64,000 nucleotides of DNA from Malacoraja senta (Eukaryota). Shown one piece after another: positions 1,648-62,952 of the stretch. The translations under genes were made by a program, and so were the position numbers. Location: positions 4,526,001 to 4,590,000 of the forward strand of contig CM075988.1 in assembly GCA_038087875.1 (NCBI GenBank). The letters run 5' to 3'. Positions within the stretch are counted from its first letter, which is position 1, and each line of letters begins with the position of its first letter. The notes beneath the pieces were generated by a model. It saw nothing but the letters and a program-made list of their open reading frames with translations, did no database searches and had not been told where the DNA came from.

Positions 1648-1858
1648 CAGGAAGGAACTGCAGATGCTGGTTTTAACCGAAGATCGACACAAAATGCTGG
1701 AGTAACTCAACGGGACAGGCAGCATCTCTGGAGAGAAGGGACGGGTGGTGTTTCAGGTCGATGTCTGAAGAAGGGTTTCAACCCGAAACGTCACCAGTTC
1801 CTTCTCGCCAGAGATGCTGCCTGTCCCGCTGAGTTACTCCAGCGTTTTGGGTCTATCT
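1648..1858. mobile_element. Palindromic (inverted-arm) element made of PLE pseudo-LTR
   Basis: ctggagtaactca.cgggacaggcagcatctctgg on left is the reverse complement of ccagagatgctgcctgtcccgctgagttactccag on right. Confidence 0.85.
1765..1792 (+). ncRNA. Minimal type I hammerhead ribozyme-like core
   Basis: CUGAAGA-A-GGGU(UUCA)ACCC-GAAA-CGUC. Confidence 0.6.
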
Positions 1859-2134
1859 GATGTGGCTCATCAAACGGATGAGTAAGAAAGAGAGTGGAAT
1901 AGCAGACACCGGAAATGCATGGCATGAGGAGAAACTAATGACAACCATTACTGTGTATGATCATGAGGAGATTTTTCACACAGAGGTTGGTGAGTGTATG
2001 AAATGGGTTGCAAAAGGAGGTAGTTGAGGCAGGTACTATCACAAAATTTATAAGGCATTTGAATAGGTACATGGATAGGAAAGATTAGAGAGATATGGGT
2101 CAAACGCAGGCAGGTGGGAACAGTGTACTTGGGG

Positions 2135-3070
2135 TATGGACATAGAGAGCTGGAGCAACTCAACGGGTCAGATCGCATCTCTGGTGAAAAGAAATAGGTG
2201 ATGTTTTGGGTCAAGATCCTTCTTCAGACTGAGAGTCAGGAGAAAGGGAAACTATAGATATAGATGGTGATATAGTGAGATATTGAGCAAATGAATGAAA
2301 GATATGCAGAGAAGTAATACTGATAAAGGGAACAGGGCATTGTTAGGTGTGGGCTAGGTGAAAACGAATAATAGACAATGAGACTCAACAAGGCGGCTTT
2401 GAAGCTGGTATAAGGACTTGGGTGGGAGAGGAACGGATAGAGAGGAAACACAAGGGTTACTTGAAGTTAGAGAAATCCATACCGCTGGGTTGCAGAGTGA
2501 AGTCTGACTATTGATGTGTGATAGATACAGAAAGCTGGAGTAACTCAGTGGGTCAGGCAGCATCTCTGGTGAAAAGGAATAGGTGACGTTTCGGGTCGAG
2601 ACCCTTCTTCAGACCGAGGGAAAGATGAGATTAAGAAGGTACATTGGACAAATGAATGAACGATACGCAAAAAGCAACGAAGATCAAGGGAATGTGGAGC
2701 CCACAATGGTCCATTGTTGGCTGTGGGGAAGGTGATAATGAGTGATACAAACAGAGTAACGCAGCAGGACAACAGTGACACTAGAATGATGGCTGCAGTG
2801 GGTGAGGGACGAAGAGAGAGGGGATGCCAGGGCTACTTGAAGTTAGAGAAAATGTTCATTGCACTGGGGTGTATGCAGCCCAAGTGAAATATGAGCTGCT
2901 GTTCCTACAATTTGCGTTGGGCCTCACTCTGGCCTTGGAGGAGGCCCAAGACAGAAAGGTCAGTATGGGAATGGGAGGGGGAGTTAAAGTTTGGCAACTG
3001 GGAGATCGCGTAGGCCAAGGCGGACTGAGCGAAGGTGTTCAGGTAAAATGATCACCCAGCCTGCGCTTTT
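2135..3070 (-). mobile_element. Penelope-like element 3' region with tandem pseudo-LTRs
   Basis: Reverse strand of GIY-YIG C-terminus (DLSVLGLL..SEA..KL.EQ.LIF) at 2840-3070 and two pLTR copies (2135-2490, 2520-2850). Confidence 0.8.
2585..2612 (-). ncRNA. Minimal type I hammerhead ribozyme-like core (best copy)
   Basis: Reverse complement reads ggu-CUGAAGA-A-GGGU(CUCG)ACCC-GAAA-CGUC-acc; 3-bp helix I, 4-bp helix II, palindromic ACGU helix III. Confidence 0.65.
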
Positions 3071-3307
3071 CCATGAAGCTGTGTCTGTAACTGAGTCAGT
3101 TTGCATTTTACTCCATCTCAGTTGAAGAGATTATAAATTAATGCAAATCTGTGCAGGCCAACCAAAGGAAAAAAAATAATAATAAATGGCAATGCCCATT
3201 GCATTCAGTGTCTAAATGGTGCAGTCACATCTTGTTAAGACATTGACAGCCATGACTGAGCTCATGCCATTTGATGTCTATTCACCATCACTCCGCGATT
3301 TTATCCC

Positions 3308-3900
3308 TTTGGGAGACATGGTTTTGCAAGTTTGAAGAGACAATGACGGGGTTCGGAATCACAGATAACACGTAAGAGAAAGCACTCCCTTACATTATGG
3401 AGGTGATGAGCCACAGGGTATTCTTGAAACATTGTCACCTGCAGCACAGGAGCTGAAGCAACGGTACACTCACTCCCCAGCAGACTGCAAGATATGAGGC
3501 TACGTGTAAAGTTGCACTGGGCAAAGGGCACGAGGAAAACATTGACATACACGGCACACATCTGTGATGACACTGCGAGATCTGACTTCCCTGAACTTGA
3601 GCAAGAACTGAAACTGCGGTTCATTGAAGAAATCATGTCAAAACAATCCCAGCAGAAAGCCCTTGAAAAGATTATCAAACTGTGCCAGCTGCTCACGTTG
3701 GAGAGATCATTGTCATTTTCAAAGAGGAGCGCAGTTGAGGTAGAAAGACCGCAAGACACTGCTGTGAAGAGGATCAGAGGAGAAATTAAACACAGGAGGT
3801 GTTGACTGTGAACAATTGTCAGCATCACCTGTAGAACAGGCTGATCCCTGCTTTGAGCTCCATTGCCAGCTGCAATCAAATCAAAAAATCAACAGCAGAG
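3308..3900 (+). pseudogene. Decayed Ty3/Gypsy-type gag fragment
   Basis: WETWFCKFEETMTGFGITDNT*EKAL/LHYGGDEPQGILETL then DFPELEQELKLRFIE...KALEK...LTLE, matching Gypsy gag N-terminal pattern; stop and frameshifts. Confidence 0.6.
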
Positions 3901-4170: not shown

Positions 4171-4174
4171 AATG

Positions 4175-5701: not shown

Positions 5702-8081
5702 ATAGACAATAGAAAATAGACAATAGACAATAGACAATAGACAATAGACAATAGACAATAGGTGCAGGAGCAGGCCATTTGGCCCTTCGAGCCAGCACCG
5801 CCATTCAATGTGATCATGGCTGATCATCCCCAATCAGTACCCCTTTCCTGCCTTCTCCCCATATCCCCTGACTCTGCTATTTTCAAGAGCCCTATCTAGG
5901 TCTCTCTTGAAAGCATCCAGAGAACCTGCCTCCACCGTCCTCTGAGGCAGAGAATTCCACAGACTCACCACTCTCTGTGAGAAAACGTGTTTCCTCGTAT
6001 CCGTTCTAAATGGCTTACTCCTTATTCTTAAACTGTGTCCCCTGGTTCTGGATTCCCCAACATCGGGAACATTTTTCCTGCATCTAGCTTCTCCAGTCCT
6101 TTTATAATTTTATATGTTTCTATAAGATCCCCCCTCATCCATCTAAACTCCAGTGAATACAAACCTAGTCTTTCCTCATATGACAGTCCCGCCATCCCAG
6201 GAATCAATCTCGTGAACCTACGCTGCACTGCCTCAATCAGAAGGATGTCCTTCCTCAAATTAGGAGACCAAAACTGTACACAATACTCCAGATGTGGTCT
6301 CACCAGAGCCCTATACAACTGCAGAAGAACCTCTTTACTCCTCTACTGAAATCCTCTTGCTATGAAGGCCAACATTCCATTAGCTTTCTTCACTGCCTGC
6401 TGTACCTGCACGCCAACTTTCAGTGACTTACTACAAGCCAACTACAAGGACGCCCAGGTCTTGCTGTACCTCCCCCTTGCCTAACCTAACCCCATTGAGA
6501 TAATAATCTGCCCCCTTGTTTTTGCGGCCAAAGTGGATAACCTCACATTTATCTATATAATCCTGCATCTGCCACGCATCTGTCCACTCACTCAACCTGT
6601 CCAGGTCACCCTGCAACCTCCCAACATCCTCTTCGCAGTTCACACTGCCACCCAGCTTTGTGTCATCCGCAAACTTGCTAGTGTTGCTCCTAATTCCCTC
6701 CTCCAAATCATTAATATATATGGTAAACAGTTGCGGCCCCAACACCGAGCCTTGCGGCACTCCACTCGCCACTGCCTGCCATTCTGAAAAGGACCCGTTC
6801 ACTCCTATTCTTTGCTTCCGGTCTGCCAACCAATTTTCTATCCATGTCAACACCCTACCCCCAATACCATGTGCTCTAATTTTAGTCACCAGTCTCCCAT
6901 CCGGGACCTCATCAAAGGCTTTCTGAACGTCTAGATACGCTACATCCACTGACACCCCGTCATCCATTTTATTTGTCACATCCTCAAAAAATTCCAGAAG
7001 ATTAGTCAAGCATGATTTCCCTTTCATAAATCCATGTTGACTTGGACTAATCCTTTTACTGCTATCCAAATGCCCCATTATTACCTCTTTAATAATTGAC
7101 TCCAGCATCTTTCCCACCACCAAAGTCAGGCTAACTGGTCTGTAATTCCCCGTTTTCTCTCTCACTCCTTTCTTGAAAAGTGGGATAACATTAGCTATCC
7201 TCCAATCCACAGGAACTGATCATGAACTTATTGAACATAGGAAAATGATCACCAATGCGTCCACTATTTCTAGAGCCACCTCCCTGAGGACCCTGGGATG
7301 CAAACCATCAGGCCCAGGGGATTTATCATCCTTCAGTCCCATTAGCCTACCCAATACTATTTCTCGCCTAATGAAAATTTATTTCAGTTCCTCTACCCCC
7401 TTAGATCTTCTGTCCTCCAGTACATCTGGGAGATTGTTTGTGTCTTCCTTAGTGAAGACAGATCCGAAGTACCTATTCGACTCTTCTGCCATTTCCTAGT
7501 TGCCCATAATAATTTCACCCGTGTCTGCATTCAAGAGACCCACATTTGACTTTGATATTCTTTTTCCCTTAACATATCTATAGAAGCTTTTACTGTCCTT
7601 CTTTATATTCATGGCCAGCTTCCCCTCGTACTTCCCGTATTGCTCGTTTTGTTTCCTTCTGTTGTCCTATGAAAGTTTTCCAATCCTCTGGTTTCCGGCT
7701 ACTCTTTGCTGTGTTATACATCTTTTCTTTTAGTTTTATTCTATCCCTAACTTCTCTTGTCAGCCACGGTTGCCTCCTACTCCCCTTAAAATCTTTCTTC
7801 CTTTTTGGAATGAAATGATCCTGCATCTTCCACATTATTCCCAGAAATTCCTGCCATTGCCGTTCCACCGCCATTCCTGCTAGGATCCCTTTCCAGTCTA
7901 CCTTGGCCAGCTCCCCTCTCATGCCTTCATAGTTCCCTTTGTTCAACTGCATCACTGACACTTCCGATTTAACCTTCTCCTTCTCAAATTTCAGATTAAA
8001 ACTAATCATATTATGATCACTACCTCCAAGCGGTTCCTTTACCTCGAGTTCTCTTATCATATCTGGTTCATTGGACAACAC
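5702..8081 (-). mobile_element. CR1 (HER1-like) LINE, 5'-truncated: end of EN, RT, 3' UTR, (CTATTGT)n tail
   Basis: ORFs with NYRPVSLT, QHGF, GVPQGSVLGP, KFADDTKLGG, YRALVRPHLEYCVQFWSP; tandem gacaata tail 5702-5761. Confidence 0.95.
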
Positions 8082-8740: not shown

Positions 8741-9346
8741 ACTCGGCAGAGTTCGTAAATTAGGTCGTGAAAGTGGGACAGGCCCTTAAGAATCTATCTC
8801 CATCTGATGTCCTTCACACCCATCTGTGGCAATGAATTCCACAGATTCACCGCCCACAGATTGAGCTAATTTCTCAGGGTTAAGACCCAAAATAGAAATA
8901 TTCTGACTCCATTGCACAATAATCCTCATTTTAACATGATGTTGATTCTTTCTTCAGACAGGTTATTGTCTTGATTCTAAAATGTTGACTCAAATGTGTT
9001 TTCATACATAACCACCCCAATATAACACGGTTACATGAGTCAGAGAGAGCATTAATAGAATCTTGGATGAATTTTCAAATCTATCAGTGAGGCCGAAATA
9101 GATTTTAGCTGTAATGTGATTTATTAGCTTTGGTATTATATTTGTAGTTTAGGAGGCAGTAAAATATTACAGTTGATGTTAGGAATATACAAAGAGGTAA
9201 GAATCATTTCTTCAATATGAGCAGTTCTATATAATGCTTTAACTTTTCCAGTATTCTTCCTTGAATTCTGAATTGAATCTTTAAATTTCTGAGAAAATCA
9301 ATGTAGCTTATTTGCAGAAGGAACATGAGGTTAAAGGGAATGACTG

Positions 9347-9612
9347 TTTCTTCCCAGCTGTTATTAGGCAACTGACCCATTCTATCACCAACTATTGAGC
9401 AATCATGAGCTACCATCTACCTGAATGGAGACACTCAGACTATCTTTAAACGGATGTTACTGGACTTTATTTTGCACTAAACTTTATCCTGTATCTGTAC
9501 ACACTGGTTGGCCTTATTGTCATTATGTACAGTCTGTTCAAAGACTGGATAGTATGCAACAAAAAGGTTTTTTCACTGTACATGTGTCAATAAACTAAAC
9601 TAAACAAAACGA
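9347..9612 (+). mobile_element. Rex1/Babar-like LINE 3' end
   Basis: ttcttcccagctgttattaggcaactga (FFPAVIRQL) plus UTR; related copies at 15420-15670 (-) and 31460-31762 (+). Confidence 0.6.
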
Positions 9613-9647
9613 AACAACATGCAATTAATTAATCCCTTTGAATTTTG

Positions 9648-9945
9648 CGGCACAGTGGCACAGCGGTGGAGTTGCTGACAGTGCCAGAGACCTGTTTCAG
9701 TCCTGATTACGGGTGCTATCTGTACAGAGGATGCACGGTCTCCCTGAGACCACGTGGGTTTTCTCCAGGTGCTCCAGTTTCCTCCCACATTGCAGGTTTG
9801 TAGGTTAATTGACTCCCGTAAATTGTCCCGTGTGTGGGAAGTTACTGGTGCATGGTGATTGCTGGTCAGTGAGGACTCTGTGGGCTGAGGGCTTGTTTCC
9901 ATGCTGCATCTCTAAACTAAACTAAACTAAACTAAACTAAACTAA
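9648..9945 (+). mobile_element. HE1-like V-SINE, full length
   Basis: tRNA-like head, V-domain, CR1-like tail gggcttgtttccatgctg, (CTAAA)n. Confidence 0.9.
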
Positions 9946-9983
9946 CCATGCCTTATACTGTCTGTTATTGTTTGTAGTCTTTA

Positions 9984-10674
9984 AGGGCCTGTCCCACTTA
10001 CACGTCCTTGGCTCGCAAATTACGCGACTTCGTGGTCGCTTGAGGCGTACGGGCACCGTATGGCCGCGCGAGGCCGGTCCCACTTAGAAGCGTGGAGGGG
10101 TATGGAGTTGTGCGCGGCTGGTCCCGACATCGCGCGGGGTTCCAAATTTCTTGCAGTGAACAAAATCTTTGCACGCCAACGGCCTGTCACGGAACTGACG
10201 GCCAAAGTGGGACAGGCCCAAGACCCTGGCGCGACGCAATGTCTCACCTCCAACAGCAGCAGAAGCAGGCAAACGATCGCCGAACTCGGCCTGGGGCTCA
10301 CGGCCGTTGTGGTCCGGATCCGCTTCCACTTCTACTCCCAGAGCGGGGCCAAGAAAATTGAAGATAGACACAAAATGCTGGAGTAACTCAGCGGGACCGG
10401 CAGCATCTCTGGAGAGAAGCAATGGGTGACGTTTCGGGTCGAGACCCTTCTTTTCAGACTGAAGAAGTCTCGACACGAAACATCACCCATTCCTTCTCTC
10501 CAGAGATGCTGCCAGTCCCGCTGAGTTACTCCAGCTTTGTGTCCATCTTCAAATGACATCACGCGCTCCAGACAGCTGTGCGTATGCATGTAATCGCGCT
10601 CGACCGTCTCGGCTCAACGCGACCACGAGGTCGCGTAATTTGCGTGCCAAGGACACGTAAGTGGGACAGGCCCT
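9984..10674. mobile_element. PIF/Harbinger-type MITE with nested palindromic PLE element (10357-10552)
   Basis: TIR agggcctgtcccacttac / gtaagtgggacaggccct with long imperfect subterminal IR; TTA TSD. Confidence 0.85.
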
Positions 10675-11156
10675 TTAACTCTTGCATAAATGTATGAGGT
10701 GAAAAAATCAGGCATTTGCTACATGGTGAAGAAGGGAACAAATCTTGTGGATATTGTGGAACAAACTAGATGATGCTGAGCTGCATCAGAAAATAACTGA
10801 AGAAGATGAATTCAACATCTCTGTGATACTTGGCCAAGGCAGCCCAGCAGGGAGGAGTGGAATACATTTAAGATGAAGGGAGGCAGAGGCAAGAATCTCT
10901 TCCATAAAGCGAACTCTGCTCCTGGCTGAGTACATCACCATCTCGACAGATGATTGTCCAGTTGACATATTCCTGTTTACTAATGGCTTCAGTGACTTTT
11001 CAGGTAAAAGAATTTGCACAATCTCTCGAATCACTTTTTTTTGCATTTGTTTAACTTGATTTGTTTAAACCGGTGCTCCTCGAGCCCGTCGGTCTTCACT
11101 GCAAAGAAGGGCTCATCACCGATAAACATTTAGTTTAGTTCGGTTTAGTTTAGATC

Positions 11157-12455
11157 ACTTTTGTCAAAGCTGGAGAGAAGCCTCGAGCACAACCAAAAAC
11201 AAGGACAGGCCTCCTCTACACAGCCACTTACTGGCAGCTGCACGTCGATCTGGGCAAACAGCTGAAATGTCCACAGCACATCACAGCAACATCACTCCGG
11301 CCAGACATGATCATCACCTCCAAAGTAACAAAACAGCTGGCAGTGCCCTGGGAAGAGCGTATTGAAGAGGCTAACAAGAGGATGCGCAAAGAAAGACTAT
11401 TTCTCCGAGTCGCGTCCTCGTCCCCCTCCTCGCAGCCTACCACCTGGATCGGAGCGGCCTTTCCTGCCGGGGTCCGGGAATCGGACCAGAGCTTCAACAG
11501 CGGCGGCGCAGCGCCGCTGGATTCACCGCGGAGCGGGCGATGCCAACCTGGGTCCCCGTTTGGTGCTCCGGAGCGTTGGGCCGCTGCTCCAACATCGCCT
11601 AGCTGTGGGCTGGGAGAGATTCCAATGCGGGCAGCGCTGAACAACATCGTGGAGTCCTGGGGCCCTTTGCCAACGGCCGCCAGCGTTGCATCTCCGCCCA
11701 GCGCGGCCAGCGGACTTTGGGAGCCGTGGACTCCGGTAGGAGGTGGCCGACTCGGATGTCCAGGCCGCTGAGGAGGTCCCCCAGTCCCGACGTCGGACTT
11801 ACATCACCCCGGCGAGCGGGCCTGAACATCGGGCCGCCCGTAGCGGCAAATGCGGAGGGCTCGGGGAGGCCCCGATGACGGGTGAACAGTGGGGAACATT
11901 AGAGGAAGAGGACGGACTTTGGTGCCTTCCCTCACAGTGGGAAACTTTGATTCTGCTGTGTGGGGATGTTTTATGTTGAATTCTATCAACTCTTGTTGTG
12001 TTCTTTATTTTGACTGTATGGCTGTATGGTGATTACATTTCACTGTGCCAACTGGCACATGTGACAAATAAATGTATCTTGTATCTTGTAAGTACCAGGA
12101 TAAGGTGGAGATGTGCCAGGACAGCGGCTGGAACACATACTATGAGCCCATAGAGGTGGGCTGTAGAGGCTTTGCAGGACACTCACTCTGCAAAGTCCTC
12201 AACCAGTTGGGCATTACGGGGCTGGCAAAGAAGAGGGCCATTCAATCCGCAAGCGAAGCCACAGAGAAAGCCACTAGGTGGCTTTGGATTAAGAGGGCTG
12301 ATCCGTGGGCGGTTGCTGCTGGGACGTAAGTCGGGGCCTGATCAACCCCGGCTGGGTCGACTGGGCGAGGGTGTCTGATGTTGTGAGGCCCGAAACACCC
12401 GATGATCCCGGGTCACATCAATGAGGATGCGTCCCAGCGCATCTAGAAGATGTAT
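11157..12455 (+). mobile_element. HERO-clade (restriction-like endonuclease) non-LTR retrotransposon 3' end, interrupted
   Basis: FVKAGEKP...LRPDMII...VPWEERIEEAN then KYQD...EPIEVGCRGFAG...ATRWLWIKR; structured 3' UTR gggtgtctgatg...gaaacaccc. Confidence 0.85.
11392..12089 (+). mobile_element. GC-rich non-autonomous retroposon inserted in HERO
   Basis: Interrupts HERO ORF; 3' stem-loop tgtgcca..tggcaca, AATAAA and (GTATCTT)n tail. Confidence 0.7.
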
Positions 12456-15221: not shown

Positions 15222-15380
15222 GAGGAAGGAATTGCAGATTCTGGTTTACACCGAAGATAGACACAAAAAGCTGGAGTAACTCAGCAGGTCAGGCAGCATT
15301 ACTGGCGAAAAGGAATGGGTGATGTTTCTATAGAGAGGCTGCCTGTCCCGCTGTGCTGCTCCAGCTTTTTATGTCTATCT
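15222..15380. mobile_element. Palindromic PLE pseudo-LTR element
   Basis: atagacacaaaaagctggag ... ctccagctttttatgtctat inverted arms. Confidence 0.75.
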
Positions 15381-17940: not shown

Positions 17941-18306
17941 AGCCACTTAGGAGACCTAAACAGCAACCTCTGGTGACCTTGCCCGCCACCCAAAAAAATC
18001 AAGGTCGAGGTGACCTGCAACCACACATATGTTGAAAACCTTCCTCGACTATGAAGAAAACCGGCTTCGACTAGACCTGCGACTAAAAAATTATCAAATT
18101 TTAAAACGGCGACCTATTTTTAGTCGAGGCCGGTTTTAATCATAATGAAAAAATAGCAGCAACCTAGATGAAGCCTCGACCACGTGGAAACCACTTTCGA
18201 CCATTAGGGAGAGTGACCAAAACCTCCGGTGACCTCATGGAAACCTTGGGTGGCGGGCAAGGTCACCAGAGGTTGCTGTTTAGGTCTCCTAAGTGGGACA
18301 GGGGCT
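17941..18306. mobile_element. PIF/Harbinger-type MITE inside a V-SINE (17886-18500, -)
   Basis: ~55-bp near-perfect IR cacttaggagacctaaacagcaacctctggtgaccttgcccgccacccaa; TTA TSD; left TIR partly deleted. Confidence 0.85.
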
Positions 18307-19255: not shown

Positions 19256-19879
19256 TAAAATTGCCCCTAGTGTGTGTAGGGAGTGGTTGCAAAAGTGGGA
19301 TAGTATAGAAATAGCACCACCGCTGGGCCATTGTGCCACTCTAACTCTGTGCTACCTACTGAGTTTTATACTGTTTATTAAAAAAAGACATAATCATATT
19401 TGAAATCTTCTCATGTGTGACTGCCAGTGTGGGATAAAGAGCGATTGCCTTGTGCACTGGAGCAAATGGAACAACAGACAACCATAACTCAACCCTCAGA
19501 CTACACAATTGACTGCATCTCCCAGGACACTTAAAATGATTCATAGAAAGGAGGTCACATGCTGGAAAGGATAACTCCTGTCTGCTTCTCCTCCTAGAAA
19601 AATTACTAGGTCACTTCCATCTGAGTGAGATTGTTGCTGTGTTCCTGTTAGCTGGTTTTTCATGCAGAAGCTCCCTCTCAATTCTGACACAAGGACATGC
19701 AGATGCTGGAGTCTTGCCTAGAACACAACGTGCCGGAGTAACATACTGGGTCAGGCAGCATCTCTGGAGAACATGGATGAACCATAAGATATAGGAGCAG
19801 AATTAGGCCATTCAGCCCAACGAGTCTACTCCACCATTGGATCATGGCTAATTATTTTTTCCCTCCCAACCCCATTTTC

Positions 19880-20038: not shown

Positions 20039-21025
20039 AACATTAGCAAATTTGCGGATGACAAAGCTGGGTGGCAGTGTTAAGCTAAGAGTTACTGGGT
20101 TAAGCTAAATGGCTACTACAGTGTGAACTGCGAGGAGGATGCTATGAGGATGCAGGGTGACTTGGACAGGTTGGGTGAGTGGGAAGATGCATGGCAGATG
20201 CAGTTTAATGTGGATAAATGTGAGGTTATCCATTTTGGTGGCAAAAACAGGAAGGCAGATTATTATCTAAATGGTGTCAAGTTGGGAAAAGGGGAAGTGC
20301 AACGGGATCTGGGGGTCCTTGTTCATCAGTCACTGAAAGTAAGCATGCAGGTACAGCAGGCAGTGAAGAAAGTGAATGGCATGTTGGCCTTCATAACAAG
20401 AGGAGTTGAATATATGAGCAAAGAGGTCCTTCTGCAGTTGTACAGGGCCCTAGTGAGCCCACACCTGGAGTATTGTGCACAGTTTTGGTCTCCAAATTTG
20501 AGAAAGGACATTCTTGCTATTGAGGGAATGCAGCGAAGGTTCACAAGGTTAATTCCCAGGATGGCGGGACTGTCATATGTTGATAGAATGGAGCGGCTGG
20601 GCTTGTATACTCTGGAATTTAGGATGAGAGGGTATCTTATTGAAACATATAAGATTATTAAGGGTTTGGACATGCTAGAAGCAGGAAACATGTTCCGGAT
20701 GTTGGGGGAGTCCAGAACCAGGGGCCACAGTTTAAGAATAATGGATAAGACAATTAGAACGGAGATGAGGAAACATTTTTTCACACAGAGAGTTGTGAGT
20801 CTGTGGAATTCTCTGTCTCAGAGGGCGGTGGAGGCCGATCTCTAGATGCTTTCAAGAGAGAGTTATATAGAGCTCTTAAAGTTAGCGGAGTCAGGGAATA
20901 TGGGGAGAAGGCAGGAATGGGGTCCTGACTGTGGATGATCAGCCATGATCACATTGAATGGCGGTGCTGACTCAAAGGGCCGAATGGCCTCCTCCTGCAC
21001 CTATTGTCTATTGTCTACTGTCTAA
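20039..21025 (+). mobile_element. CR1 LINE, 5'-truncated (RT C-terminus to tail)
   Basis: ORF 20123-20845 (MQFNVDKCEVIHFG, PHLEYCAQFWSP, FFTQRVVSLWNSL); ctattgt tail. Confidence 0.95.
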
Positions 21026-22960: not shown

Positions 22961-23123
22961 TTGCCAAATAGAGCTAAAAGAGTCATAGAGTCATACAGCA
23001 TGGAAACAGGCCCTTCGGCCCAACTTGCCCACACTGACCAACATGTCCCATCTACACTAGTCCCACCTGCCTGCGTTTGGCCCATATCCCTCCAAACCTG
23101 TCCTATACAAGTACTTGTCTTAA

Positions 23124-23546: not shown

Positions 23547-23897
23547 TTAACTGTTTCTTAGACGTTGCAATAGTCCCTGCCTCAACTACCTCCTCTGGCA
23601 GTTCATTCTGTACACCCATCTCGTTCTGTGTGAGGGTTTCTATTGAACCCACTTCAGCGGTCACCACTTGGGTAAGCAATTGACCCAAACCTGAGTTGGT
23701 TCTTTACTCAGGTATCCCAGTGACAACAACCAGCAACAGCAGTAAAAGCATCCCAGCATCTCAGCTTCTTCCACTTTATTGAAAGCCATGGATTGACCAC
23801 CAGCAAAGAGTTCCTTCGTCAGCCCAAAGTTCATCTATTTCCCTGAAGATGCTGCGTGACACAGCCCAGACCATCACACCAACCAAGGGCCCTTCTA

Positions 23898-41939: not shown

Positions 41940-43945
41940 GGTCGAAAAAGTCCAAAGTCACCAACCTGAACGACTACCGCCCGGTTGCCCTAACTCCAAT
42001 CCCAATGAAGTGCTTCGAAAGGCTGGTCCTCTCCCATATCAAATCCAGCATCCCTGCCTCACTGGACTCCCATCAATTTGCATACAGGGCAAATAGATCA
42101 ACAGAGGATGCCATCTCTCTGGTTCTTCACACTGTCCTGACTCACCTGGACAGACAGGGCACGTATCTTCATTGACTATAGCTCTGCATTCAATACGGTC
42201 ATCCCCACCAAGCTCACCACCAAACTCCACCAGCTAGGCCTCAGCTCGCCGATATGCGATTGGATCCTGAACTTTCTGACGGAGCGACCGCAGGCAGTGA
42301 CACTGGGCCCGCACCTGTCCTCCACTATCACCCTGAGCACCGGCACACCACAGGGCTGTGTACTAAGCCCCATGCTCTACTCCCTCTTCACTCACGACTG
42401 TGTCCCTGCATTCGACACCAACATCATCGTGAAGTTTGCAGACGACACAACAGTGATTGGGCTGATCACCAACGGTGATGAAACAAAATACAGAGCGGAG
42501 GTGCAGAACCTGGCGGACTGGTGCGCTCATAACAACTTGTCACTAAACACCTCCAAGACCAAGGAGCTGATTATTGACTTCAGGAGGTCCCAATATGGAG
42601 AATACGCCCCAATCTCCATTTACGGGGAAAGTGTGGAGAGAGTGTCCATCTTTAAGTTTCTGGGCACTCACATTTCAGAGGACCTCACATGGTCCACCAA
42701 CACCGCTGCGCTGGTCAAGAAGGCACAGCAACGACTGTTCTTCCTGAGGACATTAAAAAAGACTGGTCTGCCCCAACAGCTGCTGACACCATTCTACCGC
42801 TGCACCGTTGTCGTTGGGGCCTAGCTCCGTGGAGCGGCCTCCGACCGGGACGACCTGGGGGCTCCAGTCGCGGAGCCTGTGGAGCTGCGGACTTACCATC
42901 GTGGGGCTGGCTGGCCTCGGAGCGTGAGGAGCGGTGGTGGCTCGCTGCTGCGGCCCGACTCCGGAGCTCCAGCTGCAGACCTGTGGACTATGATATCGGG
43001 AGCTCGCGGGTCCAGGTGAGAGACCGCTTTCTGGAGCTCCCGCAACGCAACTTCTCCCGCCCGTGTCACTGGGTTGGAACGACCCGGAGCGGGGCCGTAA
43101 ATCGCCCGGCGCGGCTTTAATGGCCGCGGGACATTCCAGCGCCCGCCGGAGGCTCCAACTTGGTGGCTTTTGGGCCGGAGCGAGGCCATACACCGCCCGG
43201 CGCGCCCTCAACGGCCATGGGACTTAACTTTGCCCGCCTGGGGCTTCAACATCGGGAGGAGAATGGGGAGTGCAGGGGAGAGAAAAGACTTTGCCTTCCA
43301 TCACAGTGAGGAGGAGATTCACTGTGATGGATGTTTTTCTGTGGATTGAATTGTTTGTGTGTCGTGTGGGAATTGTTTTGTTTGTATGGCTGTGGAAATG
43401 GAATTTTGTTTGAGCCTCTTTGAGGTTCAAATGGCAATAAATTCTAATCAATCAATCAATCAATCAATCAATATTAACGTATGGCATCTCTGTGTGGTAT
43501 CTCAGCTGCACGGAGGCGGAGAGGAGAGCTCTTCAGCGCGTCGTCCACAGAGCGCAGAGGATCATTGGGACAGAGCTACCAGCCTTGGAGGGCATCTCCC
43601 ACACACGGTGCCTCAGGAAGGCCGTCAGCATCCATAAGGACTCATCACACCCTTGTAACGGACTGTTTGAACTACTTCCCTCCGGCAGACGTTACAAGGT
43701 CTTCTACGCCTGAACCTCCAGACTCAGAAACAGCTTTATTCCAAGAGCTATAGTGGCTCTGAACCGGCCCTGCTGAGTGCCCCCCCACCAACCCCCCGGA
43801 CAGTCTCCCTCGGATGGTCACGTCACTCAGCTTGCTTATTTATTTATCTTACTTTTCTTGTACATCGCTGGAGCTGCATACTAAATCTCGTTGCATTGAC
43901 GTGCAATGACAATAAAAGATATTATTATTATTATATTATTATATT
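41940..43945 (+). mobile_element. Rex1/Babar LINE (RT to tail), interrupted at 42807-43470
   Basis: [72 protein letters not shown]; (ATT)n tail. Confidence 0.93.
42807..43470 (+). mobile_element. GC-rich non-autonomous retroposon inserted in Rex1/Babar
   Basis: Interrupts Rex ORF; 13-bp hairpin, AATAAA and (AATC)n tail. Confidence 0.7.
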
Positions 43946-46440: not shown

Positions 46441-46754
46441 TTTTTCTATATGGTTATATCAGTCAGTTGCCGTTACACATGTAAACGGATCATCTTAAAT
46501 TTCCCAGAATGCTGTGAGGATCCAAATGATCAGTAATGATCAACAGATGGTGTGCTGAGGGCAATGTGGGAGGAGATATTAATGTTGGCACAAACACGGG
46601 GACGTTGGGATTTAACTGCAAAATACACAGTGCTGGAGGAACTCAATGGATAAAGCAACAACTGCAGAGGGAATCGACAGGCAATATTTCAGATGGAGAC
46701 CGCCTTCAGATTGATTGGAGTAGGGAGGATAAAAATGGAAATATGATGGAAATT

Positions 46755-48275: not shown

Positions 48276-48600
48276 TCTACAACAAAGGTAATTAACATCT
48301 CGGATGTCCTAGAGTGGAAACTTTCATCTTAGGAGCAGATGATCCGCACTGAACAGGATCGAACCTGGGTCTCTGGCGCTGTAAGGCAACTCTACCATTG
48401 CATCACCGTGCCACCCTTGGCACCAATAGTTAGGATCGAACCCTGGACTCTGACATTGTAAGGCTACTGTGCCACTGTGCTGCCTTAGTGTGGCAGATGT
48501 GTGGGAGATGGAACAACTGAAAGTAAGAGAAGGCATTCCAGCAAGAGGGGAGGTGGGAGGAGGTGTAGTGAAGGTAATTGTGGGAATAAGTGGGTTTTAG

Positions 48601-49184
48601 AGGAGTCGTCATTAAATAGTCTGTTCCCGGTGATGGAGACAGAGAGATCAAGAAAGGGGAAAGAGGTGTCAGAGATTGTGTCTTTGTTCCCTCAACTAAC
48701 AGACTCCCACACCCAGTGGAACCTCTCCTTACCCTCAACAACTTCGCTTTTGACACCGCTCTTTCTTCATGTCAAAGATGTAGCCATGGACATTCACATG
48801 GGCCCTTGCTATGCCTGTCTTTTGGTTGCTTACATTGAACACTCATGGTTCCAAGAGTATTCCGGTCCAACTGCCCAACTCATTTCCCACCAAAAATAGA
48901 CACAAAATGCTGATGTAACTCAGCAGGACAGGTAGCATCTCTGGATAGAAGAAATGGGCGATGTTTTGGAGTGAGACCCTTCTTCAGAGTACACATTCTC
49001 CACCATATTGCTGACTGCCTCGGGACTGTCTTCAGAACTCATTGGTTTCATTTAATGCCCTGTCCCACTTGGCGATTTTTTCGGCGACTACCGGCATCAT
49101 TGATTGATGTATCAGGTCACTGAAACATCGCAGCGTGATGCGGCGGTGACGCACCATGTTGACGTATGACGCGCGATGTTTTTT
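48601..49184 (+). repeat. Left copy of ~580-bp direct duplication flanking L1
   Basis: Near-identical to 51384-51955. Confidence 0.95.
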
Positions 49185-51383
49185 TTGTTGTTCTTGTTGT
49201 TTTTTTGTATTTTTTATTTTATTATAAGTATTGTACATTATAATAATCTGCAATAACGTAAGTTTATACTTTTCTTGTACCACTTCTTATTTTTAAACTT
49301 TAATAAGAAAAAAGGATAGAAAGAGTTAGTAAAGATAGTAAGTGAGTGATTGAAAGAGTGGTCCAGGAACACCCATATGGACCTAAACCACAAGAAATAG
49401 TTAGAGAAAAAAAAAAAGAAAGAAAAAGAGAAAAACCAAAAGGAGGAAAAAGAAAAAATAAAGCATAAGATAAGGTAGGACAATATGAAAGGGATGTGCC
49501 TACTTCATATCTGTACTCACCCCTCGCCAGGTCCTGAAACCATTTATTATCAACATTTTGTTGCACCCTATGTTTGTAATAAGTCAATAAATGGAGACCA
49601 AATCTTTTGGAATTGGTCTTGTTTACCTGCTAAGAGGAATCTCATATCTTCTAGATGTAACAATTCTGACATATTAGAAGTCCACATTTTTGTCGTTGCC
49701 GTGGGAGCATTTTCCCAAAATTTCAGTATACGTTTTTTTGCCGTTATTAAGCCAAAATTAAGGAAACTCCTTTGAAACGAAGTCAGCTCCAAACTGGCTT
49801 CGATTGTTCCAAAAATAATCAGTTCTGCATTCGGTTTCAGTTTTATTTTAAATAATTTACTGAAAATTTCAAAAATTTCATTCCAACATTTTTGGATTTT
49901 TATACAAAAAACAAAAGAATGTGCTATAGTTGCTTCTTGGGTTAGGCATTTATCACAGATAGAAGAGGTATTTGGGTAAAATTTACTTAATTTAACTTTC
50001 GAATAGTATAATCTATGTAAAATGTTAAATTGAATTTGAGTATGTGTTACGTTAATCGAGCATTTATGCACATATAACAGGTGTTTATCCCAACTCTCTT
50101 TCGAGATTTTTATAGCTAGTTCCTGTTCCCATTCACTTCTAATCCCATCAGATGATGGAATATCTATGTTTAAAATGGAATTATACAGGTATGATATTAA
50201 ATTAGCTGATTCCGCTTTTATATTTATTATCTCATCTAATAGGTCTGGAGACATATTTTGATATTCTCGTGTATAATTTTTCAAATAGTCACGTATTTGA
50301 AAGTATTTAAAATATTGATTACTACTCAAGTTGTATTTAAGTTGTAGTTGGTGAAATGTTAAAAAACTTCCATTATCATACATATCTCCAAATGTTTTAA
50401 TTCCTACTCTATCCCAATTTATAAAAGATTTATCTATCATAGAAGGTTTAAACGAAGGGTTGTTCATTATAGGTGAGAGAAGCGATAGATTTCTTAATTT
50501 TAAAGTTAATTTTATTTGTTTCCAAATTCTAATTTACAATAAATAATTGGATTTTTACTGTATATTGTATTCTTCATTTTTGTTGGTGAGAGAAGGATCG
50601 CTCCTATGTTAAAAGGGGAACAATCCTCTCTCGCCATTACTATCCAATCCACCTGCTGGGCCGAATTGTCCAACAGGTGAATCATATTTTTGACATTTGT
50701 GGCCCAGTAATAATATAAAAAATTAGGGAGTGATAATCTGCCAGATTCTTTAGGTTTACACAAATGTTTTCTTTGGATTCTGTGGGATTTATAGTCCCAT
50801 ATAAAGTTTGTAATATCAGCATCCAATTAAAAAAAAAAAAAATTTGGTAAATATATTGGTATTGACTGGAATAGATATAAAATTTGTGGTAAAAAGATCA
50901 TTTTTATAGCATTTATTCGGCCTATAAGAGACATCGGAAGAGTTTTCCAGAATTTAATCAGTATGTTTAATTTATTGAGTAAGGGCATATAGTTTGCATT
51001 AAATAAAGATTTATATTTTCTAATAATTTCAATTCCCAAATATTTAAATTTTTCTGAAGCGATTTTAAAAGGGAATTTTAACAGGTGTGTTGGGTCTTGA
51101 GGTTTAATCGTTATAATTTCACTTTTATTCCAATTTATTCTATATCCTGAAAAGGATCCAAATTCCTCTATTAAATTTAATATATTTGGTATACTGATTT
51201 GTGATTTTGTGATATATAGTAGTACATCATCTGCGTATAATGATATCTTATTATTTGAGTATTTTGTATTATACCCATGGATATTCTGATGTGTTCTAAT
51301 ACTTTCCGCTAACGGTTCTATTACACGAGCAAATAGAGGTGATAATGAACATCCCTGTCTATTTCCCCTTGATAATTGAATAA
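49185..51383 (-). mobile_element. L1-clade LINE, 5'-truncated within RT
   Basis: RQGCSLSP, LYADDV, SLIGRINAIKMIFLPQILYLF, C-terminal CDKC...HSFVFC zinc knuckle; A-rich tail at 49185-49225. Confidence 0.95.
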
Positions 51384-51955
51384 AGGAGTCGTCATTAAAT
51401 AGTCTGTTCCCGGTGATGGAGACAGAGAGATCAAGAAAGGGGAAAGAGGTGTCAGAGATTGTGTCTTTGTTCCCACAACTAACAGACTCCTACACCCAGT
51501 GGAACCTCTCCTTACCTTCAACAACTTCGCTCTTTCTTCATGTCAAAGATGTAGCCATGGACATTCACATGGGCCCTTGCTATGCCTGTCTTTTGGTTGC
51601 TTACATTGAACACTCATGGTTCCAAGAGTATTCCGGTCCAACTGCCCAACTCATTTTCCACCAAAAATAGACACAAAATGCTGATGTAACTCAGCGGGAC
51701 AGGTAGCATCTCTGGATAGAAGAAATGGGCGATGTTTTGGAGTGAGACCCTTCTTCAGAGTGCACATTCTCCGCCATATTGCTGACTGCCTCAGAACTGT
51801 CTTCAGAACTCATTGATTTCATTTAATGCCCTGTCCCACTTGGCGATTTTTTCGGCGACTGCCGGCATCATTGATTGACGTATCAGGTCACCGAAACATC
51901 GCAGCGTGATGCGGCGGTGACGCACCGTGTTGATGTATGACGCGCAATGTTTTTT
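51384..51955 (+). repeat. Right copy of ~580-bp direct duplication flanking L1
   Basis: Near-identical to 48601-49184, 12 bp shorter. Confidence 0.95.
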
Positions 51956-53080: not shown

Positions 53081-53174
53081 ATCTTGCTCAACACTTGTGC
53101 TCGGTCAGGCAAGGCCTGCTTTATCTCTTGGTTGCTAACCATTTTAGTTTGCCTTCCCATTCCCATACTGACCT

Positions 53175-54110
53175 TGTGTGTAGGAAGGAACTGCAGATGC
53201 TGGTTTAAACCGAAGATGGACACAAACAGTTAGAGTAACTCATCGGGTCAGGCAGCATCTCTGGAGAAAAGGAATAGGTGACATTTCGGGTCGAGACCCT
53301 TCTTCAGACTGAGAATCAGGGGAAAAGGAAATGAGAGGTGCAACACCAATCCCTATACCTCCTCCCTTGACTCTGTCCAGGGACCTAGACAGTCCTTTCA
53401 GGTTAGGCAGAAGTTCATTTGCACCATCTCGAACCTCATCTACTGTATCAGTTGTTCAAGACGTGGACTCTTATACATCGGCGAGACCAAACGCAGATTG
53501 GGCGATCGTTTCGCTGAACACCTTCACTCAGTCTGCCTCGGCCTACCAGATCTCTCGGTTACCAAACATTTTAATTCCCCTTCCCATTCCCACATTTTAC
53601 CTTTCTCTCCTGGGTCTCTTCCATTGTCAGAGTGAGGCCAAACACAAATTGGAGGATCAGCACTTCATATTTCGTTTGGGCAGCGGTATGAATATTGATT
53701 TCTCTAACTTCAAGTAACCCTCGCATTCTCTTTCTCTCCATCCCTCCCTCACCCAAAGTCGTCCTGTAGAGTCTCATTGTCTGTACTGCATTTTCACCTA
53801 GCCCACAGCTAACAATGGCCAGTTTCCTTTATCATTGTTGTTTTTTTGCATATCTTTCATTCATTTGTACTATATCACCGTCTGTATCTCCGTTTCCCTT
53901 TCCCCTGTCTCTCAGTCTGAAGAAGGTTGTCGACCCGAAATGACACCTATTCCTTTTCTCCAGAGATGCTGTCTCACCTGCTGAGATATTCCAGCTTTTT
54001 GGTTTATTCTACCCACACTGATCTGTCTGTCCTGGGCCTCCTCCATTGCCAGAGTGAGGCCACATGCAAACTGGAGGAACAGCACCTCATATACTGCTTG
54101 GGACACTTAC
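53175..54110 (+). mobile_element. Penelope-like element with inverted 5' pseudo-LTR (53175-53340), GIY-YIG region and direct pseudo-LTR
   Basis: NLIYCISCSRRGLLYIGETKRRLGDRFAEHL; hammerhead cores at 53280-53307 (-) and ~53917 (+). Confidence 0.88.
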
Positions 54111-54654
54111 AATCTCCCAATCCCGAGTCCCCATTTCCTTATTCTCCGCTCTCACCCTTCCCTCTGTCCTGTTCACCCATATCCCTCCCACTGGCTTTAC
54201 ATTTCACTCCTCCTCTTCTCTCCTTATCTGACACCCTTTGGTCACCTTTTCAACTCTAACCTTTGTCACTTACTTCATCCATCAGTCAGTCATTCCCCCT
54301 TCTCCTCTACCCACCCATCCTCCCATCCTACCACTCTTTACCAGCTTTCTCTCCCTTTGTAGAAGTAGGATCTCGACCCGGAACGTTGTCTGTCCCCGCC
54401 CTACATGGGTGCTGCCTATTCCAATACATTTCTCCAGCACTTTGTGTTTGTCTCAAGATTCTAAAATAAGCAGTTTCTTGTGTCTCCATGTTGGAACATA
54501 TCTGCCCGTTTCTGCTCGAGACTCCTGTCAGCAAGAATGATAGCCCCACACAGAGGCACTCAGTCTGGCTCTGTCCACAACAGCTTTTGTACATGTCCAC
54601 AACATGTTTTGTCCACAACATGTTCAACATGGAAGTTATCACCAGAATCACCAG

Positions 54655-55570: not shown

Positions 55571-55809
55571 CGGACTGGTTCACTAAATCCACTGAAATGC
55601 ACAAAGACAAGCATGAGGGTGACAGAAGATGGAGAGAGATGGTGAAAATGGCACTTTCTGTCCAGTTCCCTCCGCAGATGCTGCCTGTTCCACTGAGTTC
55701 TCCAGTAGTCTGTTTTTCGCTCAGGATTTCAGCATTTACAGTCTCTTGTGTCTCCTCAAAGCTAAATAAGACATTTTGAACTAAATTCTTGAGTATTAGA
55801 TGAGATGAC

Positions 55810-56645: not shown

Positions 56646-56669
56646 GATCGGTTTAATCATGAACTTTAG

Positions 56670-57312
56670 GGTGGCACGGTGGTCTAGTGGTAGAGCTACT
56701 GCCTTATGGGCCTGTCCCACTTACGCGACTTATTCGACGACTGTCAGCACCCGTCATAGGTCGTTGCAGGTCGCCGAAAAATTTCAACATGTTAAAAATC
56801 CAGCAGCGACCAGAAAGACGCTACGACTCTTTGGGCGACTGAGGAGTCTACTCACGACCATACAGGCAACACCCTGGCGACATGTCACGGGATGAAGCTT
56901 GTATGGTCGTGAGTAGTCGCCCAAAGAGTCGTACCTTCTTCTGGTCGCCGCTGGATTTTCAACATGTTGAACATTTTCGGCGACCTGCAACGACCTATGA
57001 CGGGTGCTGGCAGTCGCCGAAAAAATTGCATAAGTGGGACAGGCCCATTACAACGCAGAGACCTGGTTTTGATCTCGACTACGGGAGCTGTCTGTAATGA
57101 CCTGCATGTGTTGTCTCCAAGACCTTTGGTTTCTTCCCGTACTCCAAAGACGTACAGGTTTGTATTGGCTTGGTATGAATGTAAAAAAAGTTTTAGAAAT
57201 TATCCCTAGTGTGTGTAGGGAAGTGTGTCAATGTGCGCAGGTCACTGGTCAGTGTAGACTCGGTGGGCCAAAGGGCCTGATTCCGTGCTGTATCTCCAAA
57301 CTAAACTAAACT
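56670..57312 (+). mobile_element. HE1-like V-SINE interrupted by MITE
   Basis: Head 56670-56706, body resumes at 57048. Confidence 0.85.
56707..57047. mobile_element. PIF/Harbinger-type MITE, palindromic along its length
   Basis: tgggcctgtcccactta / taagtgggacaggccca; TTA TSD. Confidence 0.92.
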
Positions 57313-60417: not shown

Positions 60418-61129
60418 TTATTCCTTTTGATTATTTGGGATTAGTATTTTCCCGACAAGACAATCATCTTTTTTTAGTTCTCAGCTCCACCCATTTAAGT
60501 TCACTGGATGAACCATGAAAAATGTCATCTTGAACGATTGTCGAGACGTTTTCCTTAATCAGTAAAGCAACTCCTCCTCCAGTTTTACCTCCACCTCTAT
60601 CTTGCCTGCAGCTCCTATTCCCTGGAACATTAAGCTGCCTGTCTTGTCCCTCTCTTAGCCAGGTTTCCATAACAGCTAGATCGTCCCAGTCGCAGGTACC
60701 TGACCAAGACCTGAGTTCATCTGCCCTACCTGTCAGGCCTGTCACATTGAAATAGATGCATAAATCCAATGACCCTCCCTCACTCCCTGCTGTGCACCTG
60801 CCTATTCTGTCCACAGAGCTTGCTTTCATCAACTTCCAGCCGCTGTCCTGCCTTGCTTTGTATCCTGCTCCCCTGAAAACCATCCAGAGGTTTACACTGT
60901 AGAGATACACTGTATCTCTAACCCATCCCTTGTAAACCTGCCTGCCCAGATATGGGTTCACCTCCAGTTCAGATGCAACCTGTCCCTCTTGTACAGGTCA
61001 TCTTTGCCCTAGATGAGGTCCCAATAGTCCAATAATCTGAATCCCTGCCCCTGTTCCAGCACCTCACCTGTCCTATCTTGTTCCTATACCTCACTAGCAT
61101 GTGATACCAGGAGCAAAGTTGGTAGTAGG

Positions 61130-61760
61130 AATAAAGATGTAGATGGGGAGAATATTCAGAAATAGGAGGTGCAAAAGGATTTGAGAGTGTGGGTGCAGGA
61201 TTCCCAAAAAGTTAATCTGCAAATCGTATCGGTAGTAAGGAAGGCCAACACAATGCCCGCAATTATTTCAAGAGGACATGTATACAAAAACAGGGATGTA
61301 ATGCTGGGACTCTACAGGGCACTGCTCAGGCCACATTTGGAGTATTGTGCGCAATCTTGGACGTCATCTCTGAGGAAGGATGTGCCGGGGATCAGAGGAG
61401 GTTTACGAGAATGATCCCAGGAATGAGTAGGTTAACCTATGATGAGCGCTTGTCAGCACTGGGCCTGTACTCACTGGAGTTTAGAAGGATGACAGGGGAC
61501 CTCATTGAAACCTACCGAATAGTGAAAGGCCAAGGTAAAGTAGATGTGGAGAGGATGATTCCAGTAGTGGGAGAGTCTAGGACGTTCCTTTAGGAAGAAG
61601 ATGAGGAATTTCTTTAGTCAGGGGCTGGTGAACCTGTGGAATTCATTGCCACAGAATGCTGTGGAGGCCAAGTCAATGGTTATTTTTAAGGCAGAGAGAG
61701 ATAGATTCTTGATTAATGTGGATGCCAGGGGTTACTGGGACAAGGTAGGTGAATGGGGTT
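61130..61760 (+). mobile_element. CR1 3' fragment
   Basis: LYRALLRPHLEYCAQ, LGLYSLEFRRM.GDLIETY, NFFSQGLVNLWNSLP. Confidence 0.9.
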
Positions 61761-62744
61761 GTGCTGTACTGTTCTATGTTCCCTCTTCTATGAGTCTAAC
61801 CACTTCCCCTTCTCCTTTTACTTGGTATCACCCATATTGATATCTCAGCATCAATGTGATGAAGATCACGCCCATGACTCAGTGACTAGAAACCTATCTG
61901 GACCATCTGTGGAGTAAAAATTGGCATAAGTGTGGGACAGACTTTGCCACCTGGTCTGAACAGTACAAGGACCACCATCGCACCCCACCCCACCCCACCC
62001 CACCACCACCTTTGACAAACTGCAATGGGCTTTCTCCGGCATTCACAACGGGGAAATATAACTCAAAACTAAACCAAACCTTGGCAGATTTTGTTCACGA
62101 TTATATCAGTAACTGTGCAATGTAGCTCATTGCATGCAAAATGCCCAGGGAAGTTTCTGGGAGAAGTGATATACTGCTGGATAAATACAAGTTATTTCTT
62201 TCATGCCCAAAATGAGTAAATAAGCAAAGAATGAAATAGGCCTTCTAGAAATCTGACATCCACATTTTCATTATTTTTCCAAGACACAATCTTATCACGT
62301 TTCACGAATTCATTCATTTGGCAATATTTCAAATTATTCTGGCAGACAAGAATATCTGTTTGTTATATTTGAAATCGAAATTTTCTCAAGTGTATTCAAT
62401 TTATTTTTGGTCATCAGTTGCATCTTTATAGTTCCTTGGATATGTAAACATGATCCCTCAGCGTTCAACAGGGAAATGGAATATGCAAAAGGAATATGCA
62501 AGAATTATTCCTTTAGAAATTGTTCAATGATTGAAATTGGTTGAAATGTGGGCTTTTACAGTAATGGGGAGAGCTGACTTTCCCTTTTTAAAGGGGCTAC
62601 CTGAAACTAAATTAGTAATGAGTGAAATTATTGTCAATAATCTAATGGTAACGGTAACAGATACTATAATGAGTAAATCCTGTGTTAGAAACTCAAAACT
62701 GGACGACTGCTGCTGGAAATCTAAGAGAAGGAACAATTTCTTTA

Positions 62745-62952
62745 GACCCAAAATAGCTGGAGGAACTCAGCAGGTCAGACAGCGTCTCTGGAGAAAAGGA
62801 ATAGGCGATGTTTAAGGTTGAGACCCTTCTTCAGCCAGATCCGAAACTTCACCTATTAATTTTCTCCAGAGACGCTGTCAGACCTGCTGAGTAACCCCAG
62901 CTTTTTGTGTCCATCTTTGATTTAAACCAGCATCTGAAGTTCCTTCCTGCAC
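62745..62952. mobile_element. Palindromic PLE pseudo-LTR element
   Basis: ctcagcaggtcagacagcgtctctggagaaaa / ttttctccagagacgctgtcagacctgctgag. Confidence 0.85.

Follow-up and report, generated by a model that had tools for sequence, protein, structure and literature searches.

Endonuclease-containing Penelope-like elements (PLEs) are known to leave inverted insertions in the genomes of rotifer, fly and fish. In these copies, pseudo-long terminal repeats (pLTRs) are arranged in inverted orientation, an optional tail of 30–40 bp is present, and target-site duplications (TSDs) of 8–10 bp have been described (PMC3846280; PMC8557442). The origin of the tandem and inverted structures was called undefined in one of these accounts (PMC8557442), and the published guess is self-priming. 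We analyzed a stretch of 64,000 nucleotides from Malacoraja senta (assembly GCA_038087875.1, contig CM075988.1, positions 4,526,001 to 4,590,000 of the forward strand; hereafter the window) that contains seven short palindromes made of two truncated pLTRs each. An earlier reading of the same DNA, made without database searches (the sequence-only reading), had proposed either minimal PLE insertion products or a non-autonomous hairpin retroposon family. The first proposal is supported by arms with the same sequence as PLE ends bearing an open reading frame (ORF), long and variable TSDs, a one-sided tail, unique junctions and the presence of a long inverted form elsewhere in this stretch. The palindromes are very probably minimal inverted PLE insertions when later collapse from long forms is included, and it is likely that each was made anew. 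The copies themselves are dead.

Biochemical data are available for PAc, a Poseidon element of the green anole. Both target strands were cut in vitro and extended, and a dimer was predicted (Frangieh et al. 2024, PMC11167929). Two start sites of the reverse transcriptase (RT) delimit the tail, hammerhead cleavage is dispensable, and insertion occurs in AT-rich DNA including the element's own pLTR (PMC11167929). Metazoan PLE pLTRs carry minimal type I hammerheads (Cervera & de la Pena 2014, PMC4209133). That of D. virilis Penelope has a 2-bp helix I and a 2-nt palindromic loop, as found here, and in Schistosoma pairs of motifs lie on opposite strands 100–700 bp apart (PMC4209133).

The palindromes agree with the inverted insertions described before in their head-to-head, 5′-truncated pLTRs, a tail at one end, a TSD, palindromes at the junction and heavy 5′ truncation (PMC3846280; PMC8557442). 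In contrast to those insertions, only the two truncated pLTRs are left, seven copies occur in 64 kb, and the TSDs measure 11–16 bp. As inverted pLTRs with tail and TSD had already been described, the pLTR-only copies represent an extreme variant of an established structure, not a new kind of element. Like PAc, they display two start or end zones that bound the tail, a proposed use of both strands, no need for ribozyme cleavage, and insertion into AT-rich DNA that includes their own pLTR (PMC11167929). Non-LTR retrozymes are likewise short, non-coding, hammerhead-bearing and PLE-derived, and were reported from the one chondrichthyan sampled (Li et al. 2026, 10.64898/2026.07.22.740005). They are described there as tandems in head-to-tail order that contain two or more complete ribozymes, whereas the palindromes pair their arms head-to-head and have no more than one intact motif each. 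An assignment to that class was rejected, with one of the 14 palindrome arms being intact. In L1 twin priming, two primings from two target strands produce a variable inner junction and a TSD, invert non-overlapping parts of one RNA and leave no inverted repeat. The proposed two-strand priming, the variable junction and the TSD are alike here, but both arms cover the same pLTR. A search of the open literature found no report of pLTR-only palindromes or of PLEs from cartilaginous fishes; Repbase, Dfam, subscription papers and supplements lay outside this search and may hold consensus entries.

Seven palindromes built from the 3′ end of a PLE

The window contains 33 arms of one repeat family. 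Positions within arms are counted from the predicted hammerhead cut site, the hammerhead core occupying −28 to −1. Palindromes 1 to 7 are those starting at 1648, 10357, 15222, 23898, 34690 (previously given as 34710), 46295 and 62745. All seven are present, and the earlier coordinates were right to within about 20 nt; refined limits are listed in Table 1. A repeat search of the window gave 37 inverted pairs, the 25 longest of which include six of the palindromes, and the seventh (palindrome 5; arm divergence 27%) was confirmed by BLAST and alignment. Random placement of the 33 arms gave 0.12 head-to-head pairs on average and three at most, and seven or more were obtained in none of 20000 runs. 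The two arms of a palindrome diverge by 6–27%. Because the arms of an assembly fold-back chimera would be identical, the palindromes are best regarded as old genomic insertions.

The arms represent the 3′ end of a PLE in the form of a 5′-truncated pLTR. PLE body pieces continue into arm sequence at 2136–2492, 2520–3068, 25880–26704, 34307–34680 and 53345–54011, and the arm sequence is continuous with a C-terminal GIY-YIG ORF, as in endonuclease-containing PLEs. The reading frame at 53342–53596 displayed 60% identity along 82 aa to a protein from Rhincodon typus that comprises RT and has a GIY-YIG domain at its C-terminus. Seventeen relatives were recovered among 45 candidates, the best named ones deriving from Hypanus, Leucoraja, Heptranchias and Rhincodon (60–69% identity), and these matches by themselves would indicate a cartilaginous fish as the most likely host. 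Pfam analysis of three relatives revealed RT and, C-terminal to it, a GIY-YIG domain, the RVT_1 match (E about 1e-4) being below the cut-off. Within the window, the RT of the PLE is represented by short motif-like pieces only, and no full-length PLE copy was found. The family is abundant: 154,827, 156,984 and 193,273 public contigs from three organisms aligned to a single copy of pLTR plus tail, a comparison in which contig depth cannot rank the parts of the element. More distant pLTR relatives occur at 19691–19779, 46625–46745, 54362–54479 and 55662–55747. Three of them form their own branch in the tree described below, and the four probably represent older PLE subfamilies.

The outer ends of the arms fall into two zones, at about +57 to +68 (short end) and +98 to +104 (tail end). 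The roughly 35 nt between them fit published descriptions of the PLE tail (PMC8557442; PMC3846280; PMC11167929). This tail (+67 to +104) is found on one arm only. It is complete in palindromes 1, 3, 4 and 7, partial in palindrome 5 and lacking in palindromes 2 and 6, and it never occurs on both arms. The earlier statement that the elements consist solely of the pLTR thus has to be corrected: in addition to the pLTR, the PLE tail that follows it is present, on a single side. In the public contigs, loose, AT-rich and heterogeneous flanks were found behind the same two end zones, their exact places partly following mismatches of the reference copy. Loose ends before 25700–25701 were disregarded since they follow private mismatches of that copy.

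Direct repeats flanking the elements were scored against 297 random pairs, whose 99th percentile was a score of 7. Values above this level were obtained for palindromes 1 and 7 and for a solo one-armed stub (Table 1). The long inverted form at 53176–54011 is inserted in an older PLE body and flanked by a TSD of about 14 bp (53162–53175 and 54012–54025; 11 of 14 positions matching). Alignment to two uninterrupted copies revealed 18–20 extra bases at the join, which is consistent with this duplication. It is the only one of ten elements for which the empty-site test within the window crossed the join. Its tailless arm carries about 600 nt of body, and the other arm carries the tail.

As the sequence-only reading had observed, the centres differ among copies, and all seven junctions are distinct. 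That reading had also placed the centre at or near the hammerhead core. In five palindromes, the inner ends of both arms fall within the hammerhead region or a short distance upstream of it; in two, one arm lacks the core altogether. Palindrome 2 alone is centred on a self-complementary word; the remaining junctions contain 1–18 nt of filler or overlap by 1–2 nt. Two palindromes were folded and formed single long hairpins of −152.1 kcal/mol (z −23) and −104.8 kcal/mol (z −14), values reached by none of 200 shuffles each. That such copies would yield long double-stranded RNA (dsRNA) if transcribed is true by construction of any palindrome. A search with 9000–12000 listed no RNA data set containing this stretch, and run X18 of the public contigs is flagged as probably DNA; this speaks neither for nor against expression. 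Hypothetically, stubs within introns could contribute to the sensing or editing of dsRNA. Furthermore, the stubs will be mis-called as miniature inverted-repeat transposable elements (MITEs) or microRNA hairpins.

Some palindromes are associated with other elements. Palindrome 2 sits within a MITE-like element (9980–10678), the tail end of palindrome 4 adjoins an inverted PLE body piece (24106–24429), and palindrome 5 is joined 3′-to-3′ to the PLE end at 34307–34680. In three places (34660–34720, 24090–24130 and 53150–53200), an inverted arm borders with its tail end on a further copy of this PLE, which suggests self-targeting.

Table 1. Coordinates of the palindromes and of related PLE features in the window (arm positions relative to the predicted cut site; left/right arm)
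Feature	Position	Strand	Description
Palindrome 1	1643–1858		left arm 1643–1761 minus, −15 to +104, full tail; 1-nt filler; right arm 1763–1858 plus, −30 to +66, no tail
Palindrome 2	10355–10550		inner ends −25/−33; arms to +68 to +73 / +68, both without tail; centred on the word TCAG-N-CTGA immediately 5′ of core; arms 6% apart
Palindrome 3	15223–15380		left arm minus, −8 to +98, tail; 3-nt filler; right arm plus, +18 to +66
Palindrome 4	23900–24105		left arm minus, −26 to +68, no tail; 1-nt overlap; right arm plus, −11 to +102, tail
Palindrome 5	34690–34914		left arm minus, −32 to +85, partial tail; 5-nt spacer; right arm plus, −32 to +67
Palindrome 6	46294 to about 46440		left arm minus, +17 to +61; spacer of 18 nt that does not align; right arm plus, starting at about −23; neither arm tailed
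Palindrome 7	62743–62952		left arm minus, (−28 to −33) to +63, no tail; right arm plus, −13 to +102, tail
TSD of palindrome 1	1628–1642 / 1857–1871		15 bp, 14/15 identical; right copy overlaps last 2 nt of short arm; score 12
TSD of palindrome 7	62731–62746 / 62954–62969		16 bp, identical; last 4 nt of left copy overlap outer end of short arm; score 16
TSD of solo stub 1092–1227	1081–1091 / 1228–1238		11 bp; score 11
Minimal-hammerhead motif, the only one intact among palindrome arms	1765–1792	+	right arm of palindrome 1; predicted cut after 1792; helix I 2 bp
Long inverted form	53176–54011		inverted pLTR and tail (53176 to about 53340, minus), 5′-truncated body with GIY-YIG remnant, tailless pLTR (plus)
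GIY-YIG endonuclease remnant	53342–53596	+	Pfam PF01541, E 1.4e-4, 22.6 bits (equal to cut-off)
5′-truncated PLE body with 3′-clipped pLTR	25880–26704	+	GIY-YIG motif 26134–26250, Pfam E 0.013, below cut-off
Two tailless 5′-truncated PLE ends with body	2136–2492 and 2520–3068	−	alignment
Tailless 5′-truncated PLE end with body	34307–34680	+	directly upstream of palindrome 5
Solo pLTR with tail	25610–25790	+	−75 to +100; reference for public-contig comparison
Solo one-armed stub with tail	1092–1227	+	−33 to +103

Hammerhead motif and 5′ boundaries of the arms

The consensus of the family forms a minimal type I hammerhead with both core boxes, the extra base before stem II (between positions 9 and 10.1), the closing pair G10.1–C11.1 and a palindromic 2-nt loop 3, all of which are features of the metazoan PLE hammerheads (PMC4209133). 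In contrast to those, helix II has 4–5 bp here and most copies are decayed. By inspection, helix I comprises only 2 bp and falls short of 4–5 bp. The motif is intact in three of 33 arms (the right arm of palindrome 1 and the copies at 2520 and 26619), and the core boxes alone are retained in nine of 33. The label "ribozyme-bearing" is therefore appropriate for the family consensus and not for the palindromes, in which one of 14 arms keeps core boxes, stem II and palindromic loop. An Rfam scan returned no match at gathering score, and no hammerhead family was among the 14 matches at E up to 10; a weak match to a microRNA model covered 23929–24044 at relaxed E.

All five tail-bearing palindrome arms and the tailed arm of the long form extend 5′ beyond the predicted cut site; their templates were therefore uncut at that site. 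In the two-strand priming route favoured below, the hammerhead would be a passenger in palindrome formation.

Many arms have their start at −29 to −34. Just upstream of the hammerhead, at 25610–25658 (+), 53308–53340 (−), 53870–53916 (+) and 2228–2264 (−), there is a pyrimidine tract that terminates in CAG and resembles a 3′ splice site, so that the arm starts beside it may mark an RNA boundary. For D. virilis Penelope, the end of an intron was placed at the 5′ end of helix I (PMC4209133).

Two primed target strands or one folded strand

We favour, with modest confidence, a route in which both nicked target strands prime, synthesis stops early near the hammerhead and the cDNA ends are joined; its steps are modelled on PAc, which cuts and extends both strands, has two start sites and does not need ribozyme cleavage. 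The endonuclease of the element would nick the target strands about 10–16 nt apart and thereby account for the observed TSDs. Each freed 3′ end would then prime RT on element RNA at one of the two observed ends, the tail end (+98 to +104) or the short end (+57 to +68). Because the two arms share a subfamily, the template would be the same RNA or the same master. Both cDNAs would usually stop within about 100–130 nt, mostly in the hammerhead region where the stops are seen, and one cDNA running on into the body would give rise to the long form. End joining with the observed overlap of 0–2 nt or filler of 1–18 nt, followed by fill-in, would result in the order TSD-arm-arm-TSD.

According to the main alternative, which we consider possible and clearly less probable, a strand folded back on self-complementary hammerhead words at insertion and copied itself, one outer end being trimmed, e.g. 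by the endonuclease at the tail boundary. Self-complementary words are present at −33 to −25, −20 to −9, −15 to −12 and −5 to −2, where the centres fall. Moreover, true arm pairs are closer than shuffled ones (divergence 0.154 versus 0.197, a value this low being reached in 8 of 4320 permutations) and have more non-consensus bases in common (0.30 versus 0.16; 20 of 4320), 720 of 5040 permutations having been dropped owing to an arm overlap of less than 35 columns. This closeness is mainly due to a shared subfamily, and almost every base that paired arms have in common marks a subfamily. It is no proof of copying because any mechanism using the same template or one master predicts a shared subfamily, and a comparison of arm-to-arm with arm-to-consensus divergence cannot separate fold-back from dual priming on one master because both start with near-identical arms. 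The variants shared by the arms of palindrome 7, previously taken as private and as a sign of copying, are mostly subfamily markers: four of the five occur in other copies (10/26, 3/28, 12/29 and 7/28), those at +4, +32 and +35 were found at 9–27% in the public contigs of run X1, and only +23 T>C is private in the window (0/30). The two arms differ at 12 of 64 columns. Only in palindrome 2 does each arm have the other as its closest sequence (none of 23 others being equally close), which agrees with fold-back.

Nesting distinguishes the two routes, because a copy made by fold-back has to lie within its template, so that the loop-bearing arm should have the longer outer end. Three of the four fully tailed palindromes (1, 4 and 7) are not nested: the tailless arm possesses 14–15 spacer bases in its own orientation, and the tail is on the other arm. 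The same holds true for the long form. In palindrome 6, the spacer-bearing arm is about as long outside as its partner. The claim that one arm was copied from the other by self-primed fold-back thus fails in its simple form and survives only with an added trimming step, which would have been needed every time since the tailed arm lacks loop or body in these three copies and the long form. Centring on a self-complementary word in palindrome 2 only, together with filler or overlap at the other junctions, also speaks against it, and the mostly non-nested arms argue against the self-priming proposal of 2013 (PMC3846280).

Several observations weigh against two-strand priming. The sample comprises seven short copies and one long form from one window, and junctions of this kind were interpreted as self-priming by Arkhipova et al. 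(PMC3846280). Palindrome 3 is nested, its short arm lying within the long arm as fold-back predicts; it is the only such tailed copy, and its arms disagree at a subfamily site. Palindromes 2 and 5 are near-symmetric and fit either fold-back or dual priming. TSDs above chance were not found at five of the seven palindromes (2 to 6), a 4-bp AAAT repeat at palindrome 2 being within chance level. The lack of two-tailed copies (0/7) is not significant at this sample size (about 0.3 by a hand estimate). By a hand tally, none of 11 tailed and four of 17 tailless arms reach the body (Fisher p 0.13 for the shortness of tailed arms). The joints in public contigs support this route with a reservation. 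Among the best 15 of 315 joint rows, ten were opposite-strand joints, nine of which pair a short end with a tail end. These nine, however, are outer-to-outer by definition, a geometry unlike that of the palindromes, and their places partly follow mismatches of the reference. One such joint exists in the window at about 34680/34690. Outer-to-outer joints may be nested insertions into the AT-rich +60 to +68 zone of the element or another resolution of the same intermediate.

The inner stop of the tailed arm is at −8 to −15 in all four fully tailed stubs, too few for a rule, and its tailless partner extends as far as −26 to −33 in three of these. A speculative model, to which we give a rather low probability, would explain both stop zones as well as the inverted repeats of PLEs by a hammerhead that serves as clamp and not as cutter. 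Two RNAs, or two pLTRs of one RNA, would pair via loop 3 and bind an RT-endonuclease dimer, so that both target strands are copied at once, one copy starting from the tail end and the other from the short end, until the folded motif stops both enzymes.

An origin of the stubs by later loss of the body, starting from inserted long inverted copies of the type at 53176–54011, is improbable. Variable centres, overlaps of 1–2 nt in two copies and the presence of a long form in the window would suit such an origin, and microhomology deletions of PLE copies have been reported (PMC3846280). However, seven tight palindromes stand against one long form, and intermediate spacer lengths are missing. Palindromic repeats are usually unstable, and deletion towards tighter palindromes would run contrary to this tendency. 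In addition, a solo stub that has a TSD of its own starts in this zone as well (−33), so truncation there occurs at insertion.

A separate hairpin retroposon family, transcribed and re-mobilised as a palindrome, is highly improbable, although the density of seven copies in 64 kb would fit, pLTRs suffice for mobilisation in trans (PMC3846280) and re-mobilised sub-lineages could exist outside the window. No junction is common to two copies. The palindrome arms fall into three subfamilies or tree groups, all of which also contain solo or body-bearing copies, and a clade uniting 12 palindrome arms versus 15 other copies was rejected (approximately unbiased test, p=0.003). This tree comprised 27 of the 33 arms and 74 columns from the window; six arms of less than 55 nt, including two from palindromes, were left out, and the bootstrap had not settled. 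Moreover, a long hairpin would be expected to block the ribozyme fold, which is intact in a single palindrome arm.

An ordinary DNA-transposon MITE, suggested by short, non-coding copies with inverted ends in high number, can practically be dismissed, since the outer ends are unequal and variable (+57 to +104) and not fixed, symmetric terminal inverted repeats, the TSDs are 15 and 16 bp or not found instead of short and constant, and the arms are a retroelement 3′ end continuous with a GIY-YIG ORF.

If the genome-wide density were close to 7 per 64 kb, an extrapolation from one window, the genomes of cartilaginous fishes would be a very large record of single insertion events. Nesting, tail side, TSD length and stops could be counted in such a record, which would put self-priming to the test against both-strand priming without experiment.

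Other elements in the window

MITE-like elements are located at 9980–10678, 17943–18296, 23120–23550, 24654–25453 and 56706–57048. They have a terminal inverted repeat of about 15 bp in common (11 terminal-motif hits) and, unlike the palindromes, exhibit fixed, symmetric ends with TAA/TTA-type flanks. They may be Harbinger-like.

DIRS-like pieces were found at 27264–29870, 31038–31349, 38790–39413 and 39618–39923. They include RT (Pfam RVT_1, E 2e-7), a weak Dam-like match (E 0.04) and a tyrosine recombinase (E 1.4e-4), and each DIRS-like region is followed by a segment of about 310 bp with 82-bp inverted arms. An open stretch of 125 aa at 3428–3802 (+) resembles decayed coding sequence, with no Pfam family above cut-off. 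Remnants of long interspersed nuclear elements are present at 6434–7219 (−), 20084–20845 (+), 42141–42824 (+) and 49571–51489 (−); RVT_1 was confirmed for those at 6434, 42141 and 50830. A local duplication comprises about 48430–49080 and 51440–51850, with flanks 95–99% identical and the same tailless pLTR stub in both copies. In this duplication, a piece with a PLE-RT-like motif is fused in frame to an L1-type RT remnant (50830–51489).

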